A stretch of 39,300 nt of DNA, from the UHGV virus genome UHGV-0123126, one strand, 5' to 3'. The stretch's first letter is position 1. Each line of letters opens with the position of its first letter. Both the position numbers and the translations under genes were made by a program. Shown here in pieces: positions 15,778 to 25,481 of the stretch. This DNA comes from a virus. The notes beneath the pieces are model-generated. The model searched no databases. It was not told the origin of the DNA and saw only the letters and a list, made by a program, of their open reading frames with translations.

Positions 15778-17886
15778 TTACTTCAAAATGATACGAGATA
15801 GTTCAGTAACTACAGATGAACCAAGACTATCAACACTAGTTACCAGGGCATGATTTGCGTAAAATCTCTCCGGTGCATCAGTCATGATGCCAATTGCCAT
15901 CAAATCAATGTCAGTCTGCGTTTCAATTTGCTTCGTAACCGAACGCAAATGGGCGTCAAAACCTCTCCCAACAGCCCACGGCGCGCCATCACTCAGAACA
16001 AGCATGATCTTCCTGTCCTCCAAGCGACCGGAAAATAACGATGCAAGGCTGGCTATGCTTTCACCATCCACGTTATTAAGAAGTGGGAATGTGTAGCCTA
16101 CGCACCCCATACGTGAGCGAACTTCGCGAGAATTTGCTTTTTCATTCCAATTTTTGATGATAGGTAGCATTAAAGATTCAAAGCGAGAGAACTCATATTT
16201 GATAGCCTTAAGTTCTCCTGCTGCCATATGACTGCCAAATGTAGTGAAGCCGGTGATAATGTTGGGAACATTTATTCGATCAAGTGCATCGGCGATGGTA
16301 TATGCACTTGCAAGAGCTAGTTTTATCGTTTCGCCACTCATTGAACCCGATAAATCAATCACTTGTTGAACACAGGCGTTAACGGCTTTAGATTCTTCTT
16401 TTTTACGAAACACGCGATCATCATTCATTGTTAATCTGTAGATACTTGAACCATGAATGCGCCCCCGACGCTGGCCAGGTATAAACTGAACTCTGTTTCT
16501 GCTTGCTATTGCACGTTCCAGGTCTTTTGCCAGCGTCGACGAAACACCTGACGAAAGGTGCTTTTCAATATATTTGTCGAAGAGCTGGTTGCCTTCAGGA
16601 ACGATGCGATAACGGCTGATTGGATATCCACCTAAATCAATATCGGAGAATGTTTTAATAAGCCGTTTGATATGGGCTTCTGCCTGATCAATCGAGCCGA
16701 TGAAGTCGTATGAGCGATTGTATGGCCTGTATTCGCTTTTCGAGCTTTCTGTTAACTCGCTTTTAATCGTTTCGGATAGCGCATCTTCTGTCATGCCTCC
16801 GACTTCATCTTCCATGCTATCCAACTCCTCTAAAGCCTCTTCCAGACTCATTTTTGACGGAGTTGGAATGTCTGAAGAGCCGTCTTCTGTCGATTTTCTT
16901 TTTTCGTGGTCAGTGGTAAATGATTCTGACGCCGCGTTATCAGAAGCACCAGAATCTGATACCTCTTTATCATTTTCTGTATCATCGAATATTGTTTCTG
17001 ATGATTCAGAATTATCTGAATCATCACTGTCGTTATTATCATGTTTGTACTTACTGTGTGATTCTGATTTGATAGATTTGTGATTATCTAACGCTGAGGG
17101 TGTCTCATGATCTTCGTTGTCTTCATTGTTTTCTCCAGAGGCATCCGTCTGGTCAGCGTCTGAAGGATCGGAAGTTTTTCCCGGAGCTGACTCCTTACCT
17201 TTGCTTTCACTTTCAGTGTCTTTGAGGATCTTAGCTATGGTCGCAGCCACCTTTACACAATCCTCGGTGCAAGACATGTTACGCACGGCCACATCGATAC
17301 CATGTTCTTTTAATAATGAAATTGGTTTCTCAATGACAGGCCAATATTCATCCATGAAATCTACGAACGGTGCTTGGCCATCCCAGGCTCTTACAACCGG
17401 ACAGAGAAAGAAGTTTAGAAAAAGCGCGCGCTGATCTTTGCCACAATAAGCAATAGCCTCTGAAGCCTTTGTTTTAAAGACTTTTTCGATTATAAGGCGC
17501 TGAGTTGCCATCAGATTACGTCTTGTTCCGTTAAAGACCTGACCCATTTTTCGCTCGATGAACACGTCTTCTAAGGCATTCCATAGCGACCAGGAAGGAA
17601 CGCGTCCTTTTTCTCTCATTTTGTTGGACACACGAATATCGGTAAACAAAATGTGAGCAACCTCATGATCGAGAAATCCGCGCACAGCATTCATCAATGC
17701 CGGTGTTGCGTTATCCGGGATTGATGGGATGTTTACGAGAATTGGCTCTCCATCATCGTTATAGCGTACATAAGCGTCGTCCCCTCGTTCTGCAACAGGG
17801 ATGTTTTTACCTGAAAGGAGAGCGACTACTCGTTTTACACTGTCACGGAAGTCCTGAACCTCTTTGATGGAACGTTTTTTAGACAT
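15778..17886 (-). CDS. cobT: CobT-like von Willebrand factor A (vWA) domain protein with long acidic low-complexity linker
   Basis: 702 aa; MIDAS-like DLSGSMSGE; Ser/Asp/Glu-rich segment around residues 220-370; directly upstream of the AAA+ partner. Confidence 0.8.
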   Translation of the reverse strand: MSKKRSIKEVQDFRDSVKRVVALLSGKNIPVAERGDDAYVRYNDDGEPILVNIPSIPDNATPALMNAVRGFLDHEVAHILFTDIRVSNKMREKGRVPSWSLWNALEDVFIERKMGQVFNGTRRNLMATQRLIIEKVFKTKASEAIAYCGKDQRALFLNFFLCPVVRAWDGQAPFVDFMDEYWPVIEKPISLLKEHGIDVAVRNMSCTEDCVKVAATIAKILKDTESESKGKESAPGKTSDPSDADQTDASGENNEDNEDHETPSALDNHKSIKSESHSKYKHDNNDSDDSDNSESSETIFDDTENDKEVSDSGASDNAASESFTTDHEKRKSTEDGSSDIPTPSKMSLEEALEELDSMEDEVGGMTEDALSETIKSELTESSKSEYRPYNRSYDFIGSIDQAEAHIKRLIKTFSDIDLGGYPISRYRIVPEGNQLFDKYIEKHLSSGVSSTLAKDLERAIASRNRVQFIPGQRRGRIHGSSIYRLTMNDDRVFRKKEESKAVNACVQQVIDLSGSMSGETIKLALASAYTIADALDRINVPNIITGFTTFGSHMAAGELKAIKYEFSRFESLMLPIIKNWNEKANSREVRSRMGCVGYTFPLLNNVDGESIASLASLFSGRLEDRKIMLVLSDGAPWAVGRGFDAHLRSVTKQIETQTDIDLMAIGIMTDAPERFYANHALVTSVDSLGSSVVTELSRIILK

Positions 17887-17984
17887 GGCTAATCCTTTGT
17901 TATGAAAACAAATTATTTACTAGTGTGTTTAATGTAGCACTGCGCGAACAGGGAACTAAGCCATTCGCGCAGGGAGAAGAGGGG

Positions 17985-18197
17985 TTAACAGATTCTGACG
18001 GCTAAAGACCCGGAGCCGGTATTGAGAAGCGTGAAGCGTTTGTTGTTAAGTTCGAATATAAAGCCAGTTGTGTCATTCACACCAACCTGAATCTGCTCAT
18101 TCGGTAGATCGGTGAGGATGTCAGCTACACACTCATCAGCTAATTTCTGTACGTGTCCGATCTCAAGAGCGATTAGGCTGGAAATAGTGGTGTTCAT
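17985..18197 (-). CDS. Hypothetical small protein, first gene of the cobT-cobS-dnaE operon
   Basis: 70-aa ORF preceded by TATAAGT-type A/T-rich motif. Confidence 0.45.
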   Translation of the reverse strand: MNTTISSLIALEIGHVQKLADECVADILTDLPNEQIQVGVNDTTGFIFELNNKRFTLLNTGSGSLAVRIC

Positions 18198-18374
18198 TCA
18201 ATCAATCCATTCTAACTTATACTATGGTAAGGAATACTACTAAAATCTATATCAATACTGAATACATTCATATCATATGCAAGTTGATTTTCTTACCTGT
18301 TTTGGGCTAATTTTTCTCCGTGCAATGGCCTTTAACCGGTCTTTTAAGTGCCTATCGAAAAAAATGATAATAGC

Positions 18375-18417
18375 TTTACAACCCTAACCTTTGATGTAAT
18401 ATCGGTAAGCACTTACC
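18375..18417 (+). promoter_or_regulatory. Sigma70-type promoter (TTTACA, 16-bp spacer, TAATAT) followed by palindrome GGTAAGCACTTACC
   Basis: Hexamers at 18375..18380 and 18397..18402; 14-bp palindrome at 18404..18417; divergent intergenic region. Confidence 0.45.
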
Positions 18418-18448
18418 AGAGAGAATTGAACGCGCAAAGGTTGTAACC

Positions 18449-18835
18449 ATGTCTGATAACAAGATTGAATTTATAGAAAGTCGCTACGCTGCTTTTATCG
18501 CAGGGTTGATTGAATCCTCACCTATGAGCCAGGCCCAGATAGCCAAAACAATTGGGTATAAAAACGCCAACAACCTTTCTTTAATTAAAAGCGGCAAAAT
18601 TCCTTTGCCTATCGATAAGGTTCGTCCGCTGGCGCTGGCACTGGGCATTGAGCCAAGTCGTCTTATGATGATGGTGCTGGAAGAACGCCAACCCGAACTC
18701 GCAGCATTTTTATACAAAGAAGGCACTGCTCCTCTTAACGAGGACGAAAAACAGGTTCTTGCTGCATATAACGAGCGATTCGGTAAAGAGAAAGGCGCAT
18801 CACAAAAGGTTGTTGAGGCCATAAAGTCTCTATGA
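18449..18835 (+). CDS. Helix-turn-helix (XRE-like) transcriptional regulator
   Basis: 128 aa; HTH segment SQAQIAKTIGYKNANNLSLIKSGK; divergent from the replication operon, convergent with the recombinase. Confidence 0.7.
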   Translation: MSDNKIEFIESRYAAFIAGLIESSPMSQAQIAKTIGYKNANNLSLIKSGKIPLPIDKVRPLALALGIEPSRLMMMVLEERQPELAAFLYKEGTAPLNEDEKQVLAAYNERFGKEKGASQKVVEAIKSL

Positions 18836-19933
18836 AAAATTTACACGAATAAGCTCTGTTGATAGACGATCTCCCTTAAATTTGTGGTCAATTTCGTCTA
18901 AATCCGGTTGCTCTACGATTGATGCGATGTACGTCGAGAAACTTTCTAAGGCGTCTCGCATCTCGTCCATATAATCGTGCCGGTCGTAGACCCGATCTAT
19001 CCCCTCAAGACTGTGGTTCATGATTTTACGTGATACCTCCTGGCTTATGCCTAATGCTGGGAAGTAACTACGCGCAGTACGGCGCAAATCTCGGGGTGTA
19101 AATGGCTCAAGCTCCATCAGTTCTGGTCGTTCCAGAATACGACGTAATGCCTGGGCTATTGCCACTTTAGACATAGGAAGGTCTTTCCCGATTTTTTTAT
19201 TCGAAGGCACGAGCCACTGGCTGTCTTTACCATATTCGAACAACTCTTCAATACAAGTGCGCATTAATGAGCTTAAAGGCAGAGAATGCTCACGGGCAGA
19301 TTTGTTCCTCTTGCCTTGATTCCAAACCCCACGCTTAAGATTGAACTCACTTTTTTTAGCCCGCAGTACTTCGTCAGGTCGTCTTGCGGATACAAGACAT
19401 AGCCTGGCCGCCCATTTTGTACCAGCGCACACATTGAAGTAGTCCCATATATTCCAGAACACCCATACCTCTGCGTCGGTCAGCTTCCGCTCGCGAGGTG
19501 TGGGCTTTGCGCCACCGGCAACTTTGTTAAGTGACATATCGTTTAACGGTGACACGTCTATCATCCCCTGGAAGGCGCACCAGCTAAGGAACTGCTTCAT
19601 CAGAGAGAAAACGCGGCGGCCCATAACAATTTTGCCATCCAGTATTAGTGGGTTGACCAGTTGGTTCACCATGAACCTATTAATGTCACTTACTTTTACA
19701 TCGGCAATGTGCGGCAAAACATGTATCAAAATACAATGAACAGCGATCTCTGGCCGACGTCTGGTTATCAGCAGAGATAAGCGAGTGAATAACATGAATG
19801 CGTCCGAGAATCTCATGTCATTGCTGACCTGGGAGATCATAACGGCCTGCATTTGAGATGCTCTTTCGAGATACTCTATCGCCTCTTTTGAGGTGTTCTC
19901 CGCAGCGCGTGCTCTGTCAAAGCTATTTTTCAT
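18830..19933 (-). CDS. Tyrosine recombinase / integrase family protein
   Basis: C-terminal catalytic region RDLRRTARSYF ... MNHSLEGIDRVYDRHDY (R..H..Y pattern); 367 aa. Confidence 0.8.
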   Translation of the reverse strand: MKNSFDRARAAENTSKEAIEYLERASQMQAVMISQVSNDMRFSDAFMLFTRLSLLITRRRPEIAVHCILIHVLPHIADVKVSDINRFMVNQLVNPLILDGKIVMGRRVFSLMKQFLSWCAFQGMIDVSPLNDMSLNKVAGGAKPTPRERKLTDAEVWVFWNIWDYFNVCAGTKWAARLCLVSARRPDEVLRAKKSEFNLKRGVWNQGKRNKSAREHSLPLSSLMRTCIEELFEYGKDSQWLVPSNKKIGKDLPMSKVAIAQALRRILERPELMELEPFTPRDLRRTARSYFPALGISQEVSRKIMNHSLEGIDRVYDRHDYMDEMRDALESFSTYIASIVEQPDLDEIDHKFKGDRLSTELIRVNFS

Positions 19934-19959
19934 ATGACAATCACCGAGTTACGCCGATG

Positions 19960-19979
19960 CACTGTATAAGTAAACAGTA
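19960..19979. promoter_or_regulatory. LexA-box-like site CACTGTATAAGTAAACAGTA (CTGT-N8-ACAG)
   Basis: Fits CTGT-N8-ACAG with A/T-rich spacer; about 30 bp upstream of the recombinase start. Confidence 0.4.
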
Positions 19980-20031
19980 TATTAGGCATAGATTCTTATA
20001 GGATCAAGAGTAAAAGTAACTCATTTTCAGC

Positions 20032-20064
20032 AATGATTCCATACATAGTAGGTATGGAATCATT
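20032..20064. repeat. Perfect 13-bp inverted repeat AATGATTCCATAC-(7 bp)-GTATGGAATCATT; lox/dif-like candidate core site
   Basis: 13-bp arms with 7-bp spacer, about 100 bp upstream of the tyrosine recombinase gene. Confidence 0.45.
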
Positions 20065-20143
20065 TTGACGTTGTTTTTTGAATTTTAAGGGAAACGGGAG
20101 TGAGTTTGGTGGGAATAAAAACGGCTCCTGTGAGCCGTTAAAA

Positions 20144-20389
20144 TCAGAGGGTGCTGACGTATGCAGCCAGTTCTGTGTATCCGCCAATCGGTTGGCCATC
20201 GATCAGCACTTGGGGGATAGTCTCTACCGGTTTACCAACAATTTCACTTAGTTTTTCCTTGTCGATACCGGCAGTGGTGATGTCGATGTACTCATAATCA
20301 CCGTAGCCATGTCCCTTTAGTTGCTTCGCCAGCTCGACCGCACGTTTGCAGTATGAGCAGTTATCTCGTCCGTAGATAGTGATCGTCAT
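20144..20389 (-). CDS. Glutaredoxin-like protein (CxxC thioredoxin fold)
   Basis: MTITIYGRDNCSYCKRAVELAK...; GAGG SD before the internal ATG; track ORF extended upstream. Confidence 0.75.
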   Translation of the reverse strand: MTITIYGRDNCSYCKRAVELAKQLKGHGYGDYEYIDITTAGIDKEKLSEIVGKPVETIPQVLIDGQPIGGYTELAAYVSTL

Positions 20390-20563
20390 TGTTACCTCAT
20401 AGAATTGATATGCAACTTTACTTACAAAGAAGATAGGTGTGTGCATACTTATCTTTACAGTCTGCATTATAAAGCTATTAAAGCCTCGATCAATCTATTA
20501 ATTAAGGCATTGTTTGGTTAACATTAGCCTAATATTTTATAGTTAGTAGAGTGAAATACATAC

Positions 20564-21826
20564 ATGCCTTTTTTAATTTTCATTATTATACTACTGCTCA
20601 CCGTCATTTTTTGGGATTGGGTTGTTTTAAATGGTCAAACTGTTGGAACATTGGCTACAGCATTTGCTTTTATAGCAACAGCATGGAATGCCTACGAAGC
20701 GAGAAAAAGTGCAAAAGCAGCTTTTTCAGCCCTTCAATTAACAACTGAATCATTGTTCGAAATGCGAAAGAGTGCATTTAAACAATGGTTTGATTCCTTA
20801 TTAAATCAACATGATGAGTTATGTCTTCTTGCAAAACAAATTATCGATAAACACAAAATTAATTTAAACAGCGATGAGTTACATAGACTATATTATCCAT
20901 TGGTAAGACAGCATGAGGTAATACAGTATGTGAAGCATATTATTAATATATTTGAGTATGTGGATGGTTCATTTTATATTGATGGGGAATGTCTCAAGGA
21001 AAAAAGAGCGTATGTGTCACAATTAATTTTTAAAATCCCACCTCAGATGAAGTTGATCATTGCTATCTTTGGATTAAAAATCGATTATTGTGAACATATT
21101 AATTCGGAAAAACTGTGTTGTTTATTGAATAAATATGATTTTTTCAATGATGAAATATTTTTTGATGATGCTTATTCAAATATGCCTTATCTGGATACAT
21201 TCATAAACCTTAGATTCAACAAAATATTCAAATCTCGAATGATAAATTATTTTGATAATATCATTAAAAGTTATTATGTTCCATCGGACGTTAAAAGGGA
21301 CTGGATGTTTCGACACCCAAAGCTCGTACCGTCGGTTCTTATGAATTATAAAACTCCTTGTTCTCCTATAATTAATGATTACTTTGAGAAGTTGCCTTTA
21401 CATGTAAGAAACTACTTTGAGGAACTACTTAAAACCGCGAATGATAGAGTTACTCATTTTGACGTTTACATCCCACGCCTTATTGGTTGTTCAATCGTGC
21501 AACATTACGAAGATGTGCCTTCCGAAAAAAACAGGTTAAATGACAGGAATGATGTAATAGCTATGGCTGAAGATTACATCGAGAAAAGAAAATCTAATCA
21601 ACTAGATTACATACTTGAAGATATATACTTTAAGAGTGACGAAGATATAATCCCAGGCCACCATTTAATTGTGGCATTTGATGACTATGAATATAAATTA
21701 GCACTAATTAAGATAAATGAAAATAAAGATAACGATAATCTTTTAAATCGAATTTATACTGAATCCAGTAGCATGGTTAATGAATATAAGCGCGAAATAT
21801 TAAAATTGGGCGACTATGCAAAGTAA
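20564..21826 (+). CDS. AT-rich membrane-anchored protein of unknown function (two N-terminal TM helices, about 370-aa cytoplasmic domain); candidate abortive-infection/defence protein
   Basis: 420-aa ORF with GC content clearly lower than flanking DNA; only long plus-strand gene here; own terminator. Confidence 0.65.
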   Translation: MPFLIFIIILLLTVIFWDWVVLNGQTVGTLATAFAFIATAWNAYEARKSAKAAFSALQLTTESLFEMRKSAFKQWFDSLLNQHDELCLLAKQIIDKHKINLNSDELHRLYYPLVRQHEVIQYVKHIINIFEYVDGSFYIDGECLKEKRAYVSQLIFKIPPQMKLIIAIFGLKIDYCEHINSEKLCCLLNKYDFFNDEIFFDDAYSNMPYLDTFINLRFNKIFKSRMINYFDNIIKSYYVPSDVKRDWMFRHPKLVPSVLMNYKTPCSPIINDYFEKLPLHVRNYFEELLKTANDRVTHFDVYIPRLIGCSIVQHYEDVPSEKNRLNDRNDVIAMAEDYIEKRKSNQLDYILEDIYFKSDEDIIPGHHLIVAFDDYEYKLALIKINENKDNDNLLNRIYTESSSMVNEYKREILKLGDYAK

Positions 21827-21844
21827 ATTGCACTGTTCAACAAA

Positions 21845-21871
21845 AAAGGGGCCGAAGCCCCTTTGAATTTT
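21845..21871 (+). terminator. Rho-independent terminator (AAAGGGGC-CGAA-GCCCCTTT)
   Basis: GC-rich hairpin then TTTGAATTTT, 20 nt after the AT-rich gene stop. Confidence 0.55.
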
Positions 21872-21938
21872 GCGCTGAAAAAAGTGTTGCTAGGATGTTA
21901 GCAAGCTATGGTTAAGAACGTCTGCCGTAATTATCTAT

Positions 21939-22016
21939 CACAGCGTTGAGCGGTCTGGTTTATGTTAGCGGAGTCTTAATCGAGTTGATTAAAAGGCCAA
22001 ACCGCTCAACGCTGTG
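21939..22016. repeat. 16-bp perfect inverted repeat CACAGCGTTGAGCGGT / ACCGCTCAACGCTGTG, 46-bp spacer with nested palindrome
   Basis: Arms at 21939..21954 and 22001..22016; directly abuts the 3' end of tRNA-Ser. Confidence 0.6.
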
Positions 22017-22018
22017 TC

Positions 22019-22105
22019 TGGCGGAGAGTAATGGAATCGAACCATCATCGTTTGCACAATGGGACGGTTTTCAAGACCGCTTGAGCACCATGCTCCCTAC
22101 TCTCC
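22019..22105 (-). tRNA. tRNA-Ser (anticodon UGA), class II with long variable arm, CCA encoded
   Basis: Hand-folded: acceptor GGAGAGT/ACTCTCC, anticodon loop CTTGAAA, T-loop TTCGATT, discriminator G + CCA. Confidence 0.6.
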
Positions 22106-22322
22106 AATTGTTGTGGTTACCGGTACTGATCTCCGGCTTAGCGACCCCGGCTACTGACTGCATTGCAGTGTGTGAACTCGCCTCGTGTGTCGCTGGGGCA
22201 TTTCTTTCCGCGCATCAGTCTGCGCATCAACCACAACGAAAAGAGCACTGTATGACGTTTGCACGGACTTACGCTTAAAACAGGGCAGTCTCGGCGGTTT
22301 TCAATGCTCTTTCCTGTTGTGT

Positions 22323-22398
22323 TGGTGCCGGTTAACGGACTCGAACCGCTGACATCCTGCTTACAAGGCAGGCGCTCTACCAACTGAGCTAAACCGGC
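22323..22398 (-). tRNA. tRNA-Thr (anticodon UGU), CCA encoded
   Basis: Hand-folded: acceptor GCCGGTT/AACCGGC, D-arm GCTC..GAGC, anticodon stem CCTGC/GCAGG with loop CTTGTAA, T-loop TTCGAGT. Confidence 0.8.
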
Positions 22399-22402
22399 AA
22401 TT

Positions 22403-22489
22403 TGGTGGGGAGTGATGGAGTCGAACCACCCGAGTCGCCATGACAGTAGATTTACAGTCTACACCGCTACCTCTACGGACTAACTCCCC
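22403..22489 (-). tRNA. tRNA-Tyr (anticodon GUA), long variable arm, CCA encoded
   Basis: Hand-folded: acceptor GGGGAGT/ACTCCCC, anticodon stem GTAGA/TCTAC with loop CTGTAAA, T-loop TTCGACT. Confidence 0.8.
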
Positions 22490-22494
22490 TAAAT

Positions 22495-22569
22495 TGGCGA
22501 TGGTGGGTGGATTCGAACCACCGACCAGTTGGTTAACAGCCAACTGCTCTACCGCTGAGCTACACCATC
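22495..22569 (-). tRNA. tRNA-Asn (anticodon GUU), CCA encoded
   Basis: Hand-folded: acceptor GATGGTG/CACCATC, anticodon stem GTTGG/CCAAC with loop CTGTTAA, T-arm GGTGG-TTCGAAT-CCACC. Confidence 0.8.
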
Positions 22570-22835
22570 AATTCAGCACTGCCAGTATTTATTACTCAAC
22601 AGTGCCAATCGCGACGGTTTAGTTTCTGCCAGGAAACGCACCGCTACTTGCACTTTTCGTTAGTGCCAGACGCTTTCGACTTCGCTCAATAGTAGAAGGC
22701 AAAATCTTTAAATAGATGATGTTTCTGAGGACAGCACCTACTTTGTAATTTATACAATGTGATGTATGGAATAATTTGTTGTGAAAACAGGCACCAATGG
22801 CAACAGTGGTTAAACCTACACAACAATCCCGTCTT

Positions 22836-22957
22836 CACAACGTTGAGGCCACTACTCCGATTGAATGTTTGCCCAACATGTTACATATCAACGCTCGCCG
22901 GTATCTCTGTGAATAGAACCTTAGAATTGATAAAAATGTAATGGCCTCAACGTTGTG
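22836..22957. repeat. 16-bp perfect inverted repeat CACAACGTTGAGGCCA / TGGCCTCAACGTTGTG, about 90-bp spacer
   Basis: Arms at 22836..22851 and 22942..22957; shares core CACA-CGTTGAG with the repeat at 21939. Confidence 0.6.
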
Positions 22958-23033
22958 TGCTGGCTAACCATACCAGCCGGGCTACGTCGCCGCTTTTTAA
23001 CCCAGTATAAACGACATAATTGAACAAAATGAC

Positions 23034-23112
23034 GTAACAGAATGGGCGGTCAGTGGCTAAGAATCCGGGAGTCATATGGAGTTGAAAATATACCAACCGC
23101 CCATTCTGTTAC
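23034..23112. repeat. 16-bp perfect inverted repeat GTAACAGAATGGGCGG / CCGCCCATTCTGTTAC, 47-bp spacer
   Basis: Arms at 23034..23049 and 23097..23112 in a non-coding region. Confidence 0.6.
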
Positions 23113-23118
23113 TTCATC

Positions 23119-23142
23119 GGAGGGAACATGAATGTTCCCTCC
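23119..23142. repeat. 24-bp palindrome GGAGGGAACAT-GA-ATGTTCCCTCC
   Basis: Perfect 11-bp arms; no T-run on either side, so protein-binding site or RNA hairpin rather than a terminator. Confidence 0.55.
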
Positions 23143-23316
23143 TGCGTTCTGCAATCACACTCGCTCAGTGTGTCCCATTTCGGTAACGAGGCTGGAAACT
23201 GACCTCGCTGGTGTTTGGCTTATTAGGCTACTGCCAGATAGACTTCTTCGTTTGCACTTGTATTTAAGTTCAAACAGTCGCGTCTCAACGAAAACAAAGT
23301 CATCTTATACACAAAA

Positions 23317-23338
23317 GATAAGTAAGTAAATACTTATC
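23317..23338. promoter_or_regulatory. Palindrome GATAAGTA-AGTAAA-TACTTATC, 3' of the small-gene operon
   Basis: Perfect 8-bp arms; same ATAAGTA/TACTTAT family as 3546, 15746, 26840. Confidence 0.45.
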
Positions 23339-23347
23339 AATATGTTT

Positions 23348-23638
23348 TTATTCGGTTGTGACTTTTTTGATCAAGGCCACTCTACGACTAGGTGTTCTTG
23401 TAATGGTGGCAGTGAATCGTTTCGCTTGGATAGTAATGGTTTCGTTCTCCTTAAGTTGCCCGTAGCGAGTTTCCACCAGGGTGCCAAGACGCCACAGACC
23501 ATCATCGATACGTTTATGACTAGCAAATTTAATCAGCAACAGTTTTACGACTAACTGACCTACGTAAAAGGCGAATGCGACTCCGGCCGCTAAGAAATAG
23601 GTGGCCAACCACCATTCCCAAGAAGTTAAATTGCTCAT
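23348..23638 (-). CDS. Hypothetical membrane protein (96 aa, N-terminal TM helix)
   Basis: Start overlaps upstream stop (ATGA); preferred over antisense ORF 23342..23554. Confidence 0.5.
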   Translation of the reverse strand: MSNLTSWEWWLATYFLAAGVAFAFYVGQLVVKLLLIKFASHKRIDDGLWRLGTLVETRYGQLKENETITIQAKRFTATITRTPSRRVALIKKVTTE

Positions 23639-23787
23639 TTTTTCACCTTTGTTTCATGAACTACCCGATACACACGCTTTCCGATGCACAGTGTTTTGGT
23701 TTTAAGTTCCTGCTTAATTAAATCACGACAGATGCCGAAGCCGATAAGGAAGCCACCCATAAAAGCTAATGAGATGTATGGAATCAT
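23635..23787 (-). CDS. Small membrane protein (50 aa), not in ORF track
   Basis: Own translation MIPYISLAFMGGFLIGFGICRDLIKQELKTKTLCIGKRVYRVVHETKVKK; ATGA overlaps at both ends. Confidence 0.4.
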   Translation of the reverse strand: MIPYISLAFMGGFLIGFGICRDLIKQELKTKTLCIGKRVYRVVHETKVKK

Positions 23788-23999
23788 TTTAACACTCCTG
23801 ATTCTACTAATTGCTGTAGCAATACTTTCCCTTTATCAGTTAACTGGTAGTTGGCCGAACACCACGTTTCAGAAACGTTTGCAACCAACCCTAAACGCTC
23901 TAACTTAGCTCGCGTTTTAGGCTTCCAGTACTCAGGGAACTCCGGCCACTTACTGATTTCATGAAGCGTTTCCTTCTCCCGTTTACTTAATACGATCAT
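23784..23999 (-). CDS. Hypothetical small protein (71 aa)
   Basis: Coupled ORF in the post-ligase operon. Confidence 0.5.
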   Translation of the reverse strand: MIVLSKREKETLHEISKWPEFPEYWKPKTRAKLERLGLVANVSETWCSANYQLTDKGKVLLQQLVESGVLK

Positions 24000-24162
24000 C
24001 CTTAATCTCCTTCAGGGTGTTGGTTATTTCTACAATGCGATAAATACGACCGCGTCTTTCTATAACACCGCTTTTAATGTAGTCATTGATGCAACTGGAC
24101 ATCACCACAATACCTATGAAAAACCCAACTGCTAAAAATGCAATCATCCAGCCGAGCATCAT
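23983..24162 (-). CDS. Small membrane protein (59 aa), not in ORF track
   Basis: Own translation MMLGWMIAFLAVGFFIGIVVMSSCINDYIKSGVIERRGRIYRIVEITNTLKEIKDDRIK; start overlaps ligase stop (ATGA). Confidence 0.4.
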   Translation of the reverse strand: MMLGWMIAFLAVGFFIGIVVMSSCINDYIKSGVIERRGRIYRIVEITNTLKEIKDDRIK

Positions 24163-25481
24163 TCTTTATCTCCGATTCGATCTTCTGTATCGCGTAAGCA
24201 ACGCGGCCATTTCAGTCGGGGGTGGCGTAAGCTGCCATCCGGTGTTTTCTCGTGACAATGAACCTCAACAATACGACCACGGTACTTCTCTTTGTTGTTC
24301 CAGATCTCGTCCAGATATTTATGCTTAATACCGCTCGCACGAACGATGACGCCGTTTTCAAGACGAATAACAATTTTTCCAAGTGTGTTGGCAAAACCAG
24401 AGTCCGGGTCGCCCGGCTCAAAGTCGATAATTTCACCATCTTCTGAATCTTCGTCTTTTAACTTCCACCAGCTGCGGGTACGTTTAAACTCGTAAACAGA
24501 GTTCGGATCTTTGCCCATCTCCCCTTCTTCGTTATCGTCCAGGCGTTTCATGAAGCGTTCGATGAAGTCTTCGTGGCTATGGATGATATAGAACGGATGC
24601 AGGTGAATGTCTTGTGTGTAGCCTTCACTGCGATCGTTTTTGAACAACGCCACCAGCATAGCCAGGCGCTCTTTCAGCTTCATACCTGTCTTTGCATACT
24701 CTTTGGATTTAGCCTGTGCTCGCCATTCCGGTAGGAAGAAGTCGAAAACATGATAAATAGCGCCAATTGCCTGCACGTTCTTTTTGCGCAATGCAGATAC
24801 GGACTGGTTAAATGAACCGGCAGTTCCTTCACCATCGAAGAAGATGTGTTTGTGGCCTGAAAGTTTGCCTAATTCGAGCATGGCTGGCTTTAGGTGATCG
24901 AGAGACGTGATTGGATTACCAGTACGAGAAAGGAAGTTAACCTCTTCCTCGTCAACAATAACCTCGCAAATTACTCGCAAACCATCGAGCTTAAGACTGC
25001 CAATCATCGGCCATTTGGCTTTAGGATTTGGCTTGAAGGGGTATTTGTCGCCTTTTTCTTTATACGGTGACGCCAGCTGCACCTCGAATTTCGGAATGGG
25101 ATTTTCAAAAACCTTGTTACATAGGCTAATCCCAACGCCAGCTTTCGGATCTTTTAAGAGGAAACGACGGAACACGTCCTGCCCATCGGCGCACATTGAC
25201 GCCACGATAGACTCAACAGCAGCTATTGCTGCGTTCCCCGTCAGCTCGCGAGAGGCCAGCTTATTCAGTATATCAATGGCTTTTTCGTCACTTGGGACGG
25301 ACTCACTAAGCGGCTCTGCCACTTTGTATTTCTTTACCCCAAAACGGATGAAAGGGTTGAGCATCAATGAAACCATGCTTTGCTCGAAGTCATCCATGTT
25401 GGCCAATGCCTCTTTTTTTGCATTGGTTCCCATAGCTTTCATTTCGTCCAGCTTATGCTTAAGTGCGATCAACTTTTTCAT
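24159..25481 (-). CDS. ATP-dependent DNA ligase
   Basis: Adenylation motif SLKLDGLRV (KxDG); EGEMGK and WWKLK regions resemble ligase motifs; 440 aa. Confidence 0.85.
   Translation of the reverse strand: MKKLIALKHKLDEMKAMGTNAKKEALANMDDFEQSMVSLMLNPFIRFGVKKYKVAEPLSESVPSDEKAIDILNKLASRELTGNAAIAAVESIVASMCADGQDVFRRFLLKDPKAGVGISLCNKVFENPIPKFEVQLASPYKEKGDKYPFKPNPKAKWPMIGSLKLDGLRVICEVIVDEEEVNFLSRTGNPITSLDHLKPAMLELGKLSGHKHIFFDGEGTAGSFNQSVSALRKKNVQAIGAIYHVFDFFLPEWRAQAKSKEYAKTGMKLKERLAMLVALFKNDRSEGYTQDIHLHPFYIIHSHEDFIERFMKRLDDNEEGEMGKDPNSVYEFKRTRSWWKLKDEDSEDGEIIDFEPGDPDSGFANTLGKIVIRLENGVIVRASGIKHKYLDEIWNNKEKYRGRIVEVHCHEKTPDGSLRHPRLKWPRCLRDTEDRIGDKE

Follow-up and report, generated by a model that had tools for sequence, protein, structure and literature searches.

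We analyzed a 39,300-nucleotide (nt) stretch of DNA, the virus genome UHGV-0123126 (called the window hereafter), which belongs to an Escherichia coli phage-plasmid of the SSU5-like type. A preliminary description of this stretch had pointed to an AT-rich open reading frame (ORF) for a 420-amino-acid (aa) protein, as a candidate for an undescribed defence or abortive-infection (Abi) function. The 6-kb stretch around the ORF is 98% identical to Escherichia phage CMS-2020a and phage Cyrano, with about 70% of its length covered. The 1.5-kb ORF region matches dozens of non-mobilizable E. coli plasmids of 105-115 kb at 97.5-99.9%, and in complete E. coli genomes all matches of this region are plasmid-borne (0 chromosomal). 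The locus is composed of the following genes and features.

20564..21826, + strand: the 420-aa ORF with an ATG start, predicted to encode a divergent AbiC/P-like (putAbiC superfamily) membrane-anchored protein
20392..20563, no strand: AT-rich spacer of 172 nt between the divergent grx and ORF, containing the left breakpoint of the cargo slot
20144..20389, - strand: grx, a GrxA-type glutaredoxin gene, the conserved left flank of the cargo slot
18830..19933, - strand: tyrosine recombinase (integrase), left of the glutaredoxin gene
18449..18835, + strand: helix-turn-helix (HTH) regulator of 128 aa
21845..21864, no strand: GC-rich hairpin AAAGGGGC-CGAA-GCCCCTTT, terminator-like, in the conserved backbone
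22019..22569, - strand: tRNA cluster Ser-TGA, Thr-TGT, Tyr-GTA and Asn-GTT, the conserved right flank of the slot

Our gene and tRNA calls agree with the flanks given in the preliminary description, a recombinase and glutaredoxin on one side and a tRNA cluster on the other. The ORF had also been called the only long plus-strand gene in a minus-strand block. This is true for 15778-25481, where the sole other plus-strand gene is the short HTH regulator. Over the slot region, Rfam reports the four tRNAs and no further RNA family.

We placed the borders of the cargo slot at the ends of backbone homology to relatives that carry other cargo, which gives a slot from ~20392/20425 to 21838. Backbone homology stops at 20389-20424 on the left and restarts at 21839-21841 on the right. 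The 420-aa gene is the only ORF in 20392-21838, a single-gene organisation as judged from the context. The hairpin has an A-tract at one border and a T-tract at the opposite one, and is therefore bidirectional and terminator-like on both strands. The ORF was thought to have a GC-rich terminator of its own. Such a terminator-like hairpin does exist; however, the point at which backbone homology restarts makes it a part of the backbone, and it is also present in relatives carrying other cargo. The claim of an own AT-rich promoter was not supported either. The plus-strand promoter candidates in the spacer are weak (8/12 matches, TTGGTT-18-TATAGT ending at 20543), and the best consensus site (10/12), from 20493 to 20466, lies on the minus strand and faces grx.

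Performing a windowed GC check, we find that the ORF is indeed poorer in GC than its surroundings, as had been judged by eye. Its GC content is 0.314 (0.280 at third codon positions) compared to the window mean of 0.454, i.e. 31.4% against 45.4%, and it is the lowest among all 1263-nt windows of the stretch (z = -4.3). An intact copy of the ORF occurs in 37 PLSDB plasmids and in the plasmids of 39 complete E. coli genomes. We compared it with the allele in the same slot of Escherichia albertii elements, which has about 91% nucleotide identity (91.7%). The two alleles differ by 65.5 non-synonymous and 44.5 synonymous differences, giving a ratio of non-synonymous to synonymous rates (dN/dS) of 0.32. 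In view of this ratio, the ORF is a real, functional gene under purifying selection. In the same comparison, the backbone genes gave a dN/dS of 0.03 (integrase) and 0.06 (ligase), showing that the ORF is far less constrained. The dS of the ORF was 0.21, while that of adjacent backbone genes was 0.04-0.09. As this is a 2-4x ratio, the alleles appear older than the backbone around them. The dS excess fits old alleles swapped by recombination at the conserved flanks, which suggests cassette exchange.

The comparison with relatives, which had been proposed as a check on the view of the locus as an accessory hotspot, supports that view. Every close or intermediate homologue that could be placed is a plus-strand gene in the same slot of an SSU5-group element, with grx on one side and the tRNA cluster on the other. 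The slot alleles include proteins of 431 aa (55% identical to the window protein), 438 aa (32%) and, in Klebsiella, 398 aa (36%); alleles from Enterobacter and Salmonella plasmids occupy it as well. All alleles are AT-rich, with 31-37.5% GC in surrounding DNA of 44-52% GC. Among the E. coli-type elements examined, nucleotide identity to the flanks of the window is 91-100%. The flanking DNA in the carrier of the 438-aa allele is also in this range (91-100%), while the two genes align over 133 nt only. In PLSDB, 138 plasmids carry some allele; 103 of the 138 cover at least 80% of the query, and 101 of the 138 are below 60% identity. The carriers belong to Escherichia, Klebsiella, Enterobacter, Salmonella, Citrobacter and Pantoea. 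Among the matching E. coli plasmids, 39 of 176 have the window allele. The phage Cyrano and CMS-2020a elements, which are deposited in GenBank as phages, lack the family and have unrelated cargo in the slot. The elements with the ORF are deposited as plasmids, and a tblastn search of 50,697 deposited phage genomes gave no match to the window protein. In summary, different cargo occupies the slot in different relatives, and a fixed position is filled in turn by deeply diverged alleles or by unrelated cargo.

Two N-terminal transmembrane (TM) helices and a large cytoplasmic domain had been read from the translation. The hydropathy profile, the distribution of lysine and arginine (K/R) and a helical hairpin in an AlphaFold2 (AF2) model all agree with this topology. 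The protein is divided as follows.

20567..20695, + strand: N-terminal membrane hairpin, with TM1 at residues 2-22, a turn at N23-G24 and TM2 at residues 24-44 (from hydropathy and the AF2 model)
20696..20863, + strand: basic juxtamembrane stalk, residues 45-100, with an isoelectric point (pI) of ~9, the sole basic segment of the protein
20912..21154, + strand: equivalent of the putAbiC core (an 80-position Pfam model, mapping to residues ~120-200), residues ~117-197, with invariant Y122, F193 and F194
21164..21823, + strand: variable C-terminal half, residues 201-420, a proposed specificity (sensor) module

TM1 is strongly hydrophobic (Kyte-Doolittle values up to 2.8). TM2 is weaker (~1.45) yet highly conserved, and most family members show two hydrophobic peaks. 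Up to position 44 the protein has no K/R, and a K/R cluster comes after residue 45; hence the large domain is predicted to be cytoplasmic. The AF2 model, made from a 28-sequence alignment, has a mean predicted local distance difference test score (pLDDT) of 85.3 and a predicted template modelling score of 0.72; a 7-sequence version had a pLDDT of 61.6. In the model, the hairpin is formed by helices 2-22 and 24-44, and the second helix runs on as a long stalk (H24-96). A helical core follows at ~103-235, and then another helical domain, which includes a small three-strand element, at ~254-416; the C-terminal half is confidently modelled. The model and the charge distribution together expose only a tight turn to the periplasm and leave ~375 of the 420 residues in the cytoplasm.

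Conservation is polarised along the family. Residues 21-80 and 121-200 are conserved, while residues 201-420 show 23-35% column identity, with Y262 as the sole invariant residue. The best-conserved motif of the family, AFxATAWxAxEARxSAKAA (residues 35-53), lies at the cytoplasmic end of TM2. A Foldseek search of the model against BFVD gave nothing at E <= 0.001, the PDB likewise had no similar structure, and a profile search of PDB sequences gave nothing below E = 0.04.

To place the protein in a family, we used the profile and structure searches that had been suggested for it, with a divided outcome. Pfam, PADLOC, NCBIfam, the PDB and BFVD remained blank, while exhaustive phmmer and hhalign comparisons reached the putAbiC family, PF16872. 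A word-indexed search of 5.8 billion proteins returned 7 clusters. The exhaustive phmmer (HMMER) search of 1.84 billion representatives returned 42 proteins, ~27 of them full-length, at 16-35% identity; the full-length relatives have 360-495 aa, mostly 415-475 aa. When the members of the 28-sequence alignment were scanned singly, 17/28 matched PF16872. In PADLOC, 4/28 matched AbiC (best 1.3e-6) and 2/28 matched AbiP (best 1.1e-4), with these matches confined to the core region. One relative, P0020, aligns with the window protein along its entire length (E = 6e-42); at residues 121-201, equivalent to the core of the window protein, it scores 25.4 bits to PF16872 and so clears the gathering threshold of 22. 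More distant members (P0026, P0033 and P0040) score 36-37 bits to PF16872. The window protein itself stays under the gathering score of 22 bits, which is an operational threshold and no test of homology.

Performing hhalign between the window subfamily and ten PF16872-annotated proteins, we obtained a probability of 92.7% (E = 4e-7) over residues 49-212. Consistent with this, tblastn with the window protein reaches a gene of a Pantoea plasmid (E = 3e-7), for which the PGAP name is 'putative phage abortive infection protein'. The phmmer search, the member scans, hhalign and tblastn thus all show homology to PF16872-bearing proteins across the putAbiC core. From these comparisons, we conclude that the window protein forms a divergent branch within the AbiC/AbiP group, slightly beyond the reach of current models. 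The preliminary description had guessed a likeness to membrane-anchored Abi proteins; the guess proved sound, and the likeness is one of homology beyond architecture alone. In the same light, 'undescribed' goes too far. The protein is of a known family kind, distant members are already annotated as putative phage Abi proteins, and its sole direct family match is PHROG 18168 (phrog_18168), with the function listed as unknown. As another candidate, the SLATT 2TM domain (PF18181 and relatives) was rejected: its only match is a sub-threshold one in a relative (P0009, 12 bits against 26.3, E = 0.23), the window protein has none, and the slot lacks a gene for a signalling partner.

Some relatives lie outside the phage-plasmids. 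Scanning bacterial species genomes with the closer subgroup of the family alignment, we found three loci. The Siccibacter relative, on a 1.1-Mb contig, adjoins a TIR/SEFIR protein, the Lelliottia relative adjoins an AAA_15/AAA_21 ATPase and a partner gene, and the Pantoea relative adjoins an N6/N4 DNA methylase. The annotated Pantoea plasmid homologue has a DUF4145 protein and a recombinase nearby. The gene neighbours are wholly different between the phage-plasmid, Siccibacter, Lelliottia and Pantoea contexts. The neighbourhoods of the distant relatives are of the kind expected for defence genes, which is circumstantial evidence.

The closest known systems include lactococcal and staphylococcal ones. 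AbiC was first described in 1992, and it cuts the production of the major capsid protein while DNA replication is unaffected (PMC13064643). Like the ORF, AbiC (Prf) of the Lactococcus lactis plasmid pTN20 (PDLC02343, PF16872) is a single-gene system on a mobile element. It also has two N-terminal TM helices and an all-helical extramembrane domain (PMC13064643), as in the window protein. The core is common to both, as seen from full-length relatives of the window protein that match PF16872 and PDLC02343 at equivalent positions, and from hhalign. In contrast to AbiC, the window protein falls below all model thresholds and has ~420 aa compared to a 306-position PADLOC profile. Matches to the AbiC model stop near position 238/306, which leaves the C-terminal ~220 residues of the window protein without a counterpart there, as also in the PADLOC AbiP model. 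The host of the ORF is a Gram-negative enterobacterium and its carrier a phage-plasmid, unlike the lactococcal setting of AbiC.

AbiP (Lactococcus, PDLC02351), which is grouped with AbiC as AbiC/P, and PdpSau, an AbiP-like protein of Staphylococcus aureus prophages, are also membrane-anchored single-protein Abi factors. AbiP is activated by a phage major tail protein and disturbs the switch from early to late transcripts (PMC13064643). PdpSau causes abortive infection with membrane depolarisation: phage DNA enters, replication stalls, and the membrane is depolarised and permeabilised within 10 minutes (PMC10127798). PdpSau resembles the ORF in being accessory cargo on a temperate element. In two relatives of the window protein, the same core aligns to the AbiP model, and the sequence similarity of AbiP and PdpSau to the window protein itself is indirect. 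AbiP and PdpSau have one TM helix, whereas the window protein has a two-helix hairpin. Also comparable to the window protein are the enterobacterial 'putative phage abortive infection proteins' of ~430-460 aa (such as Kosakonia P0052 and Pantoea WP_161569778), which share its length class, hydrophobic N-terminus, core and variable C-terminal half and align with it over most of their length at 16-26% identity. Proteins of this type pass the PF16872 threshold, while the window subfamily does not, and they sit on chromosomes or other plasmids and not in the SSU5 slot.

The slot, too, has known parallels. Like the defence hotspots of temperate elements, such as those of the P2/P4 type and the accessory 'moron' slots of prophages, the grx-tRNA slot has a fixed position between conserved backbone genes and mutually exclusive AT-rich cargo of different families that includes toxin-antitoxin modules. 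It differs from known defence hotspots in that none of the cargo found in it is a catalogued PADLOC defence system.

Taken together, the ORF is rather likely to be functional single-gene cargo of an SSU5-like phage-plasmid, encoding a divergent membrane-anchored Abi protein of the AbiC/AbiP group. We infer its anti-phage role by analogy with the characterised members of this group. In a lysogen, the protein would stay idle in the inner membrane. The variable C-terminal domain would recognise a component of a superinfecting phage. By analogy with the reports on AbiP and AbiB, this trigger would probably be a structural or late protein. The conserved stalk, the core and the membrane hairpin would then arrest the infection, most plausibly at the membrane. 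The arrest might be a collapse of membrane integrity or potential, as in PdpSau, or it might be a block of late gene expression, as the lowered production of the major capsid protein by AbiC would suggest. As an outcome, the host population of the phage-plasmid would be shielded from competing phages.

Several observations weigh against this assignment. A direct search with the window protein finds no match in Pfam or PADLOC (both at E <= 1) or in NCBIfam (at E <= 0.1), so that its membership in AbiC/P depends on transitive links and profile comparisons. Homology extends only over residues ~49-212, and the C-terminal 220 residues are without a known relative. TM2 of the window allele is moderately hydrophobic. 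The cytoplasmic domain is acidic (net charge -8, pI 5.9), while the cytoplasmic part of AbiP and PdpSau is positively charged and nucleic-acid-binding; for this reason, a nucleic-acid-binding mechanism is less likely for the branch of the ORF. No strong ORF promoter is apparent in the 172-nt spacer, which may bear on expression in the lysogen. We found no published phenotype data for any member of this enterobacterial branch, and the mechanism of AbiC itself is still unknown (PMC13064643).

The main alternative is superinfection exclusion, whereby an inner-membrane protein blocks DNA entry or an early membrane step, against related phage-plasmids included, and the host survives. The product is a membrane protein of a prophage-type element, encoded beside the integrase/repressor region, its alleles are as highly variable as exclusion specificity would predict, and the predicted structure shows no sign of an enzymatic effector. 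The homologues AbiC and AbiP, however, act after DNA entry, and PdpSau also admits DNA. A mere tight turn in the periplasm is poor geometry for blocking injection, and the relatives in non-prophage chromosomal contexts, near TIR and ATPase genes, do not suit a prophage exclusion factor. We therefore hold exclusion to be unlikely, and an Abi function remains our preferred reading.

Somewhat less likely still is a selfish or neutral accessory gene with no host benefit, such as an orphan membrane toxin, an addiction factor or decaying acquired DNA. The intact frame, the dN/dS value, the presence in dozens of plasmids and a full-length conservation down to 16-35% identity all argue against decay, even though the ORF is AT-rich and horizontally acquired and database copies P0006, P0010, P0049, P0059 and P0060 are truncated. 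Most of these truncated entries are marked 'partial', i.e. they are contig ends. YafO-type toxin-antitoxin modules do occur in the neighbouring slot of relatives, but there is no partner antitoxin ORF in the slot of the window.

The gene might also serve the life cycle of the phage-plasmid itself, as a membrane tether or regulator with a part in replication, partition, lysis timing or lysogeny control, rather than act against phages. A family member at the same position in many SSU5-group plasmids across genera (the 138 PLSDB plasmids), near integrase, HTH regulator and replication genes, would be in keeping with such a role. Its presence is nevertheless polymorphic, with the window allele in a minority of E. 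coli plasmids (39/176) and the family missing from the Cyrano and CMS-2020a elements. Moreover, the composition is foreign in every host, the gene evolves far faster than the backbone genes, and homologues occur beyond phage-plasmids, all of which makes this role improbable. A counter-defence or host-takeover protein for the phage-plasmid's own infection is the most improbable of these alternatives: the ORF is variable cargo of a mobile element, and SSU5-group elements are reported to carry anti-defence genes, but its homology is to Abi defence proteins, its chromosomal homologues lie beside defence-type genes and not in phages, deposited phage genomes hold no match, and a membrane anchor and 420 aa are atypical of the known small soluble anti-defence proteins.

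Returning to the Abi reading, what was already known is a single-gene, membrane-anchored AbiC/P protein in an accessory hotspot of a temperate element. The new points are the assignment of an unannotated branch, its long variable C-terminal half and the cassette-like allelic series in SSU5-group phage-plasmids. A broader proposal joins these points, and we put it forward only tentatively, holding it possible but doubtful as a whole. The grx-tRNA slot would be a cassette-exchange hotspot for AbiC-like proteins whose conserved half serves as membrane anchor and effector, and their hypervariable C-terminal ~220 residues would be a new phage-sensing module of unknown fold class. The alleles of 420, 431, 438 and ~398 aa would give different anti-phage spectra, the acidic cytoplasmic domain, which would not bind nucleic acids, would act by protein sensing and membrane collapse, and the alternating 300-aa family described below would be a second uncatalogued defence gene. 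Membrane collapse via direct protein sensing, if true, would be a mechanism not yet demonstrated for AbiC.

The gain is incremental, extending a known family and a known type of hotspot without a new principle. Nonetheless, the AbiC-like alleles form a natural series in E. coli, carried by clinical phage-plasmids that are widespread, and this series is of practical value as an entry point to the mechanism of AbiC, as genetics and phage panels are easy to apply there. The clear split into conserved and variable halves invites domain-swap work. Where 1,227 SSU5-group contigs were surveyed with DefenseFinder, other systems were listed and AbiC went unmentioned. Since Pfam, PADLOC and NCBIfam miss this branch as well, the counts of defence systems on SSU5-type phage-plasmids are probably too low.

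Other cargo alternates with the ORF in the slot. A family of soluble proteins of 298-302 aa has the same slot and orientation in 58 PLSDB plasmids (29 Escherichia, 27 Klebsiella). Two of its alleles are 56% identical between near-identical flanks. The family has no match in Pfam, PADLOC or NCBIfam. Its proteins contain 'LLRHTIVHN', which by eye reads as a HEPN-like Rx4H motif, and the family may therefore be another uncatalogued defence gene. The 302-aa cargo was rejected as a relative of the ORF product, the hhalign probability being 0.7%. In phage Cyrano, the slot holds a gp49/66-like gene (Pfam). In one CMS-2020a element, a larger gene replaces both grx and the slot, and its product may be a surface-glycan-modifying or tail-associated enzyme. 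These alternative cargoes were also considered as catalogued defence systems and rejected: PADLOC was blank, and Pfam gave a YafO toxin, a SASA esterase and a gp49/66-like protein. The positions are those of the locus of each relative.

L002 5151-6059, L013 3606-4502 and L014 3606-4502, + strand: genes of the 298-302-aa family, GC 29-31%
L003 3638-5551, - strand: gene of a 637-aa protein with DUF1737, SASA (sialate O-acetylesterase) and DUF6645, in one CMS-2020a element

A second variable slot lies between integrase and grx, and grx is therefore bordered by two cargo hotspots. In relatives, this second slot carries a YafO-toxin pair, a 184-aa ORF, or a colicin-E1 immunity gene together with a YafO pair.

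20066..20162 of the window, no strand: second variable slot, integrase to grx, empty in the window
L002 3608-4636, L004 4450-5478, L001 3702-4256 and L016 826-2286: counterparts of the second slot in relatives

We noticed some further differences between the elements. A spacer of ~200 nt separates tRNA-Ser and tRNA-Thr (window 22106-22322; an insertion at ~22118-22308 relative to Cyrano). Phage Cyrano lacks it and has the two tRNAs side by side, and relatives L003 and L004 keep it in part; ARAGORN and Rfam find no tRNA or other RNA family in it. The tRNA-Tyr of the window is absent from Cyrano. The E. albertii plasmids with the 91.7%-identical allele are of 62-64 kb (L009, which is p2014C-4015-1 of 63.8 kb, and matches H70-H76) and carry the CobT-int-grx-ORF-tRNA-ligase block. 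They look like shortened, possibly defective derivatives of a ~110-kb SSU5-like element.

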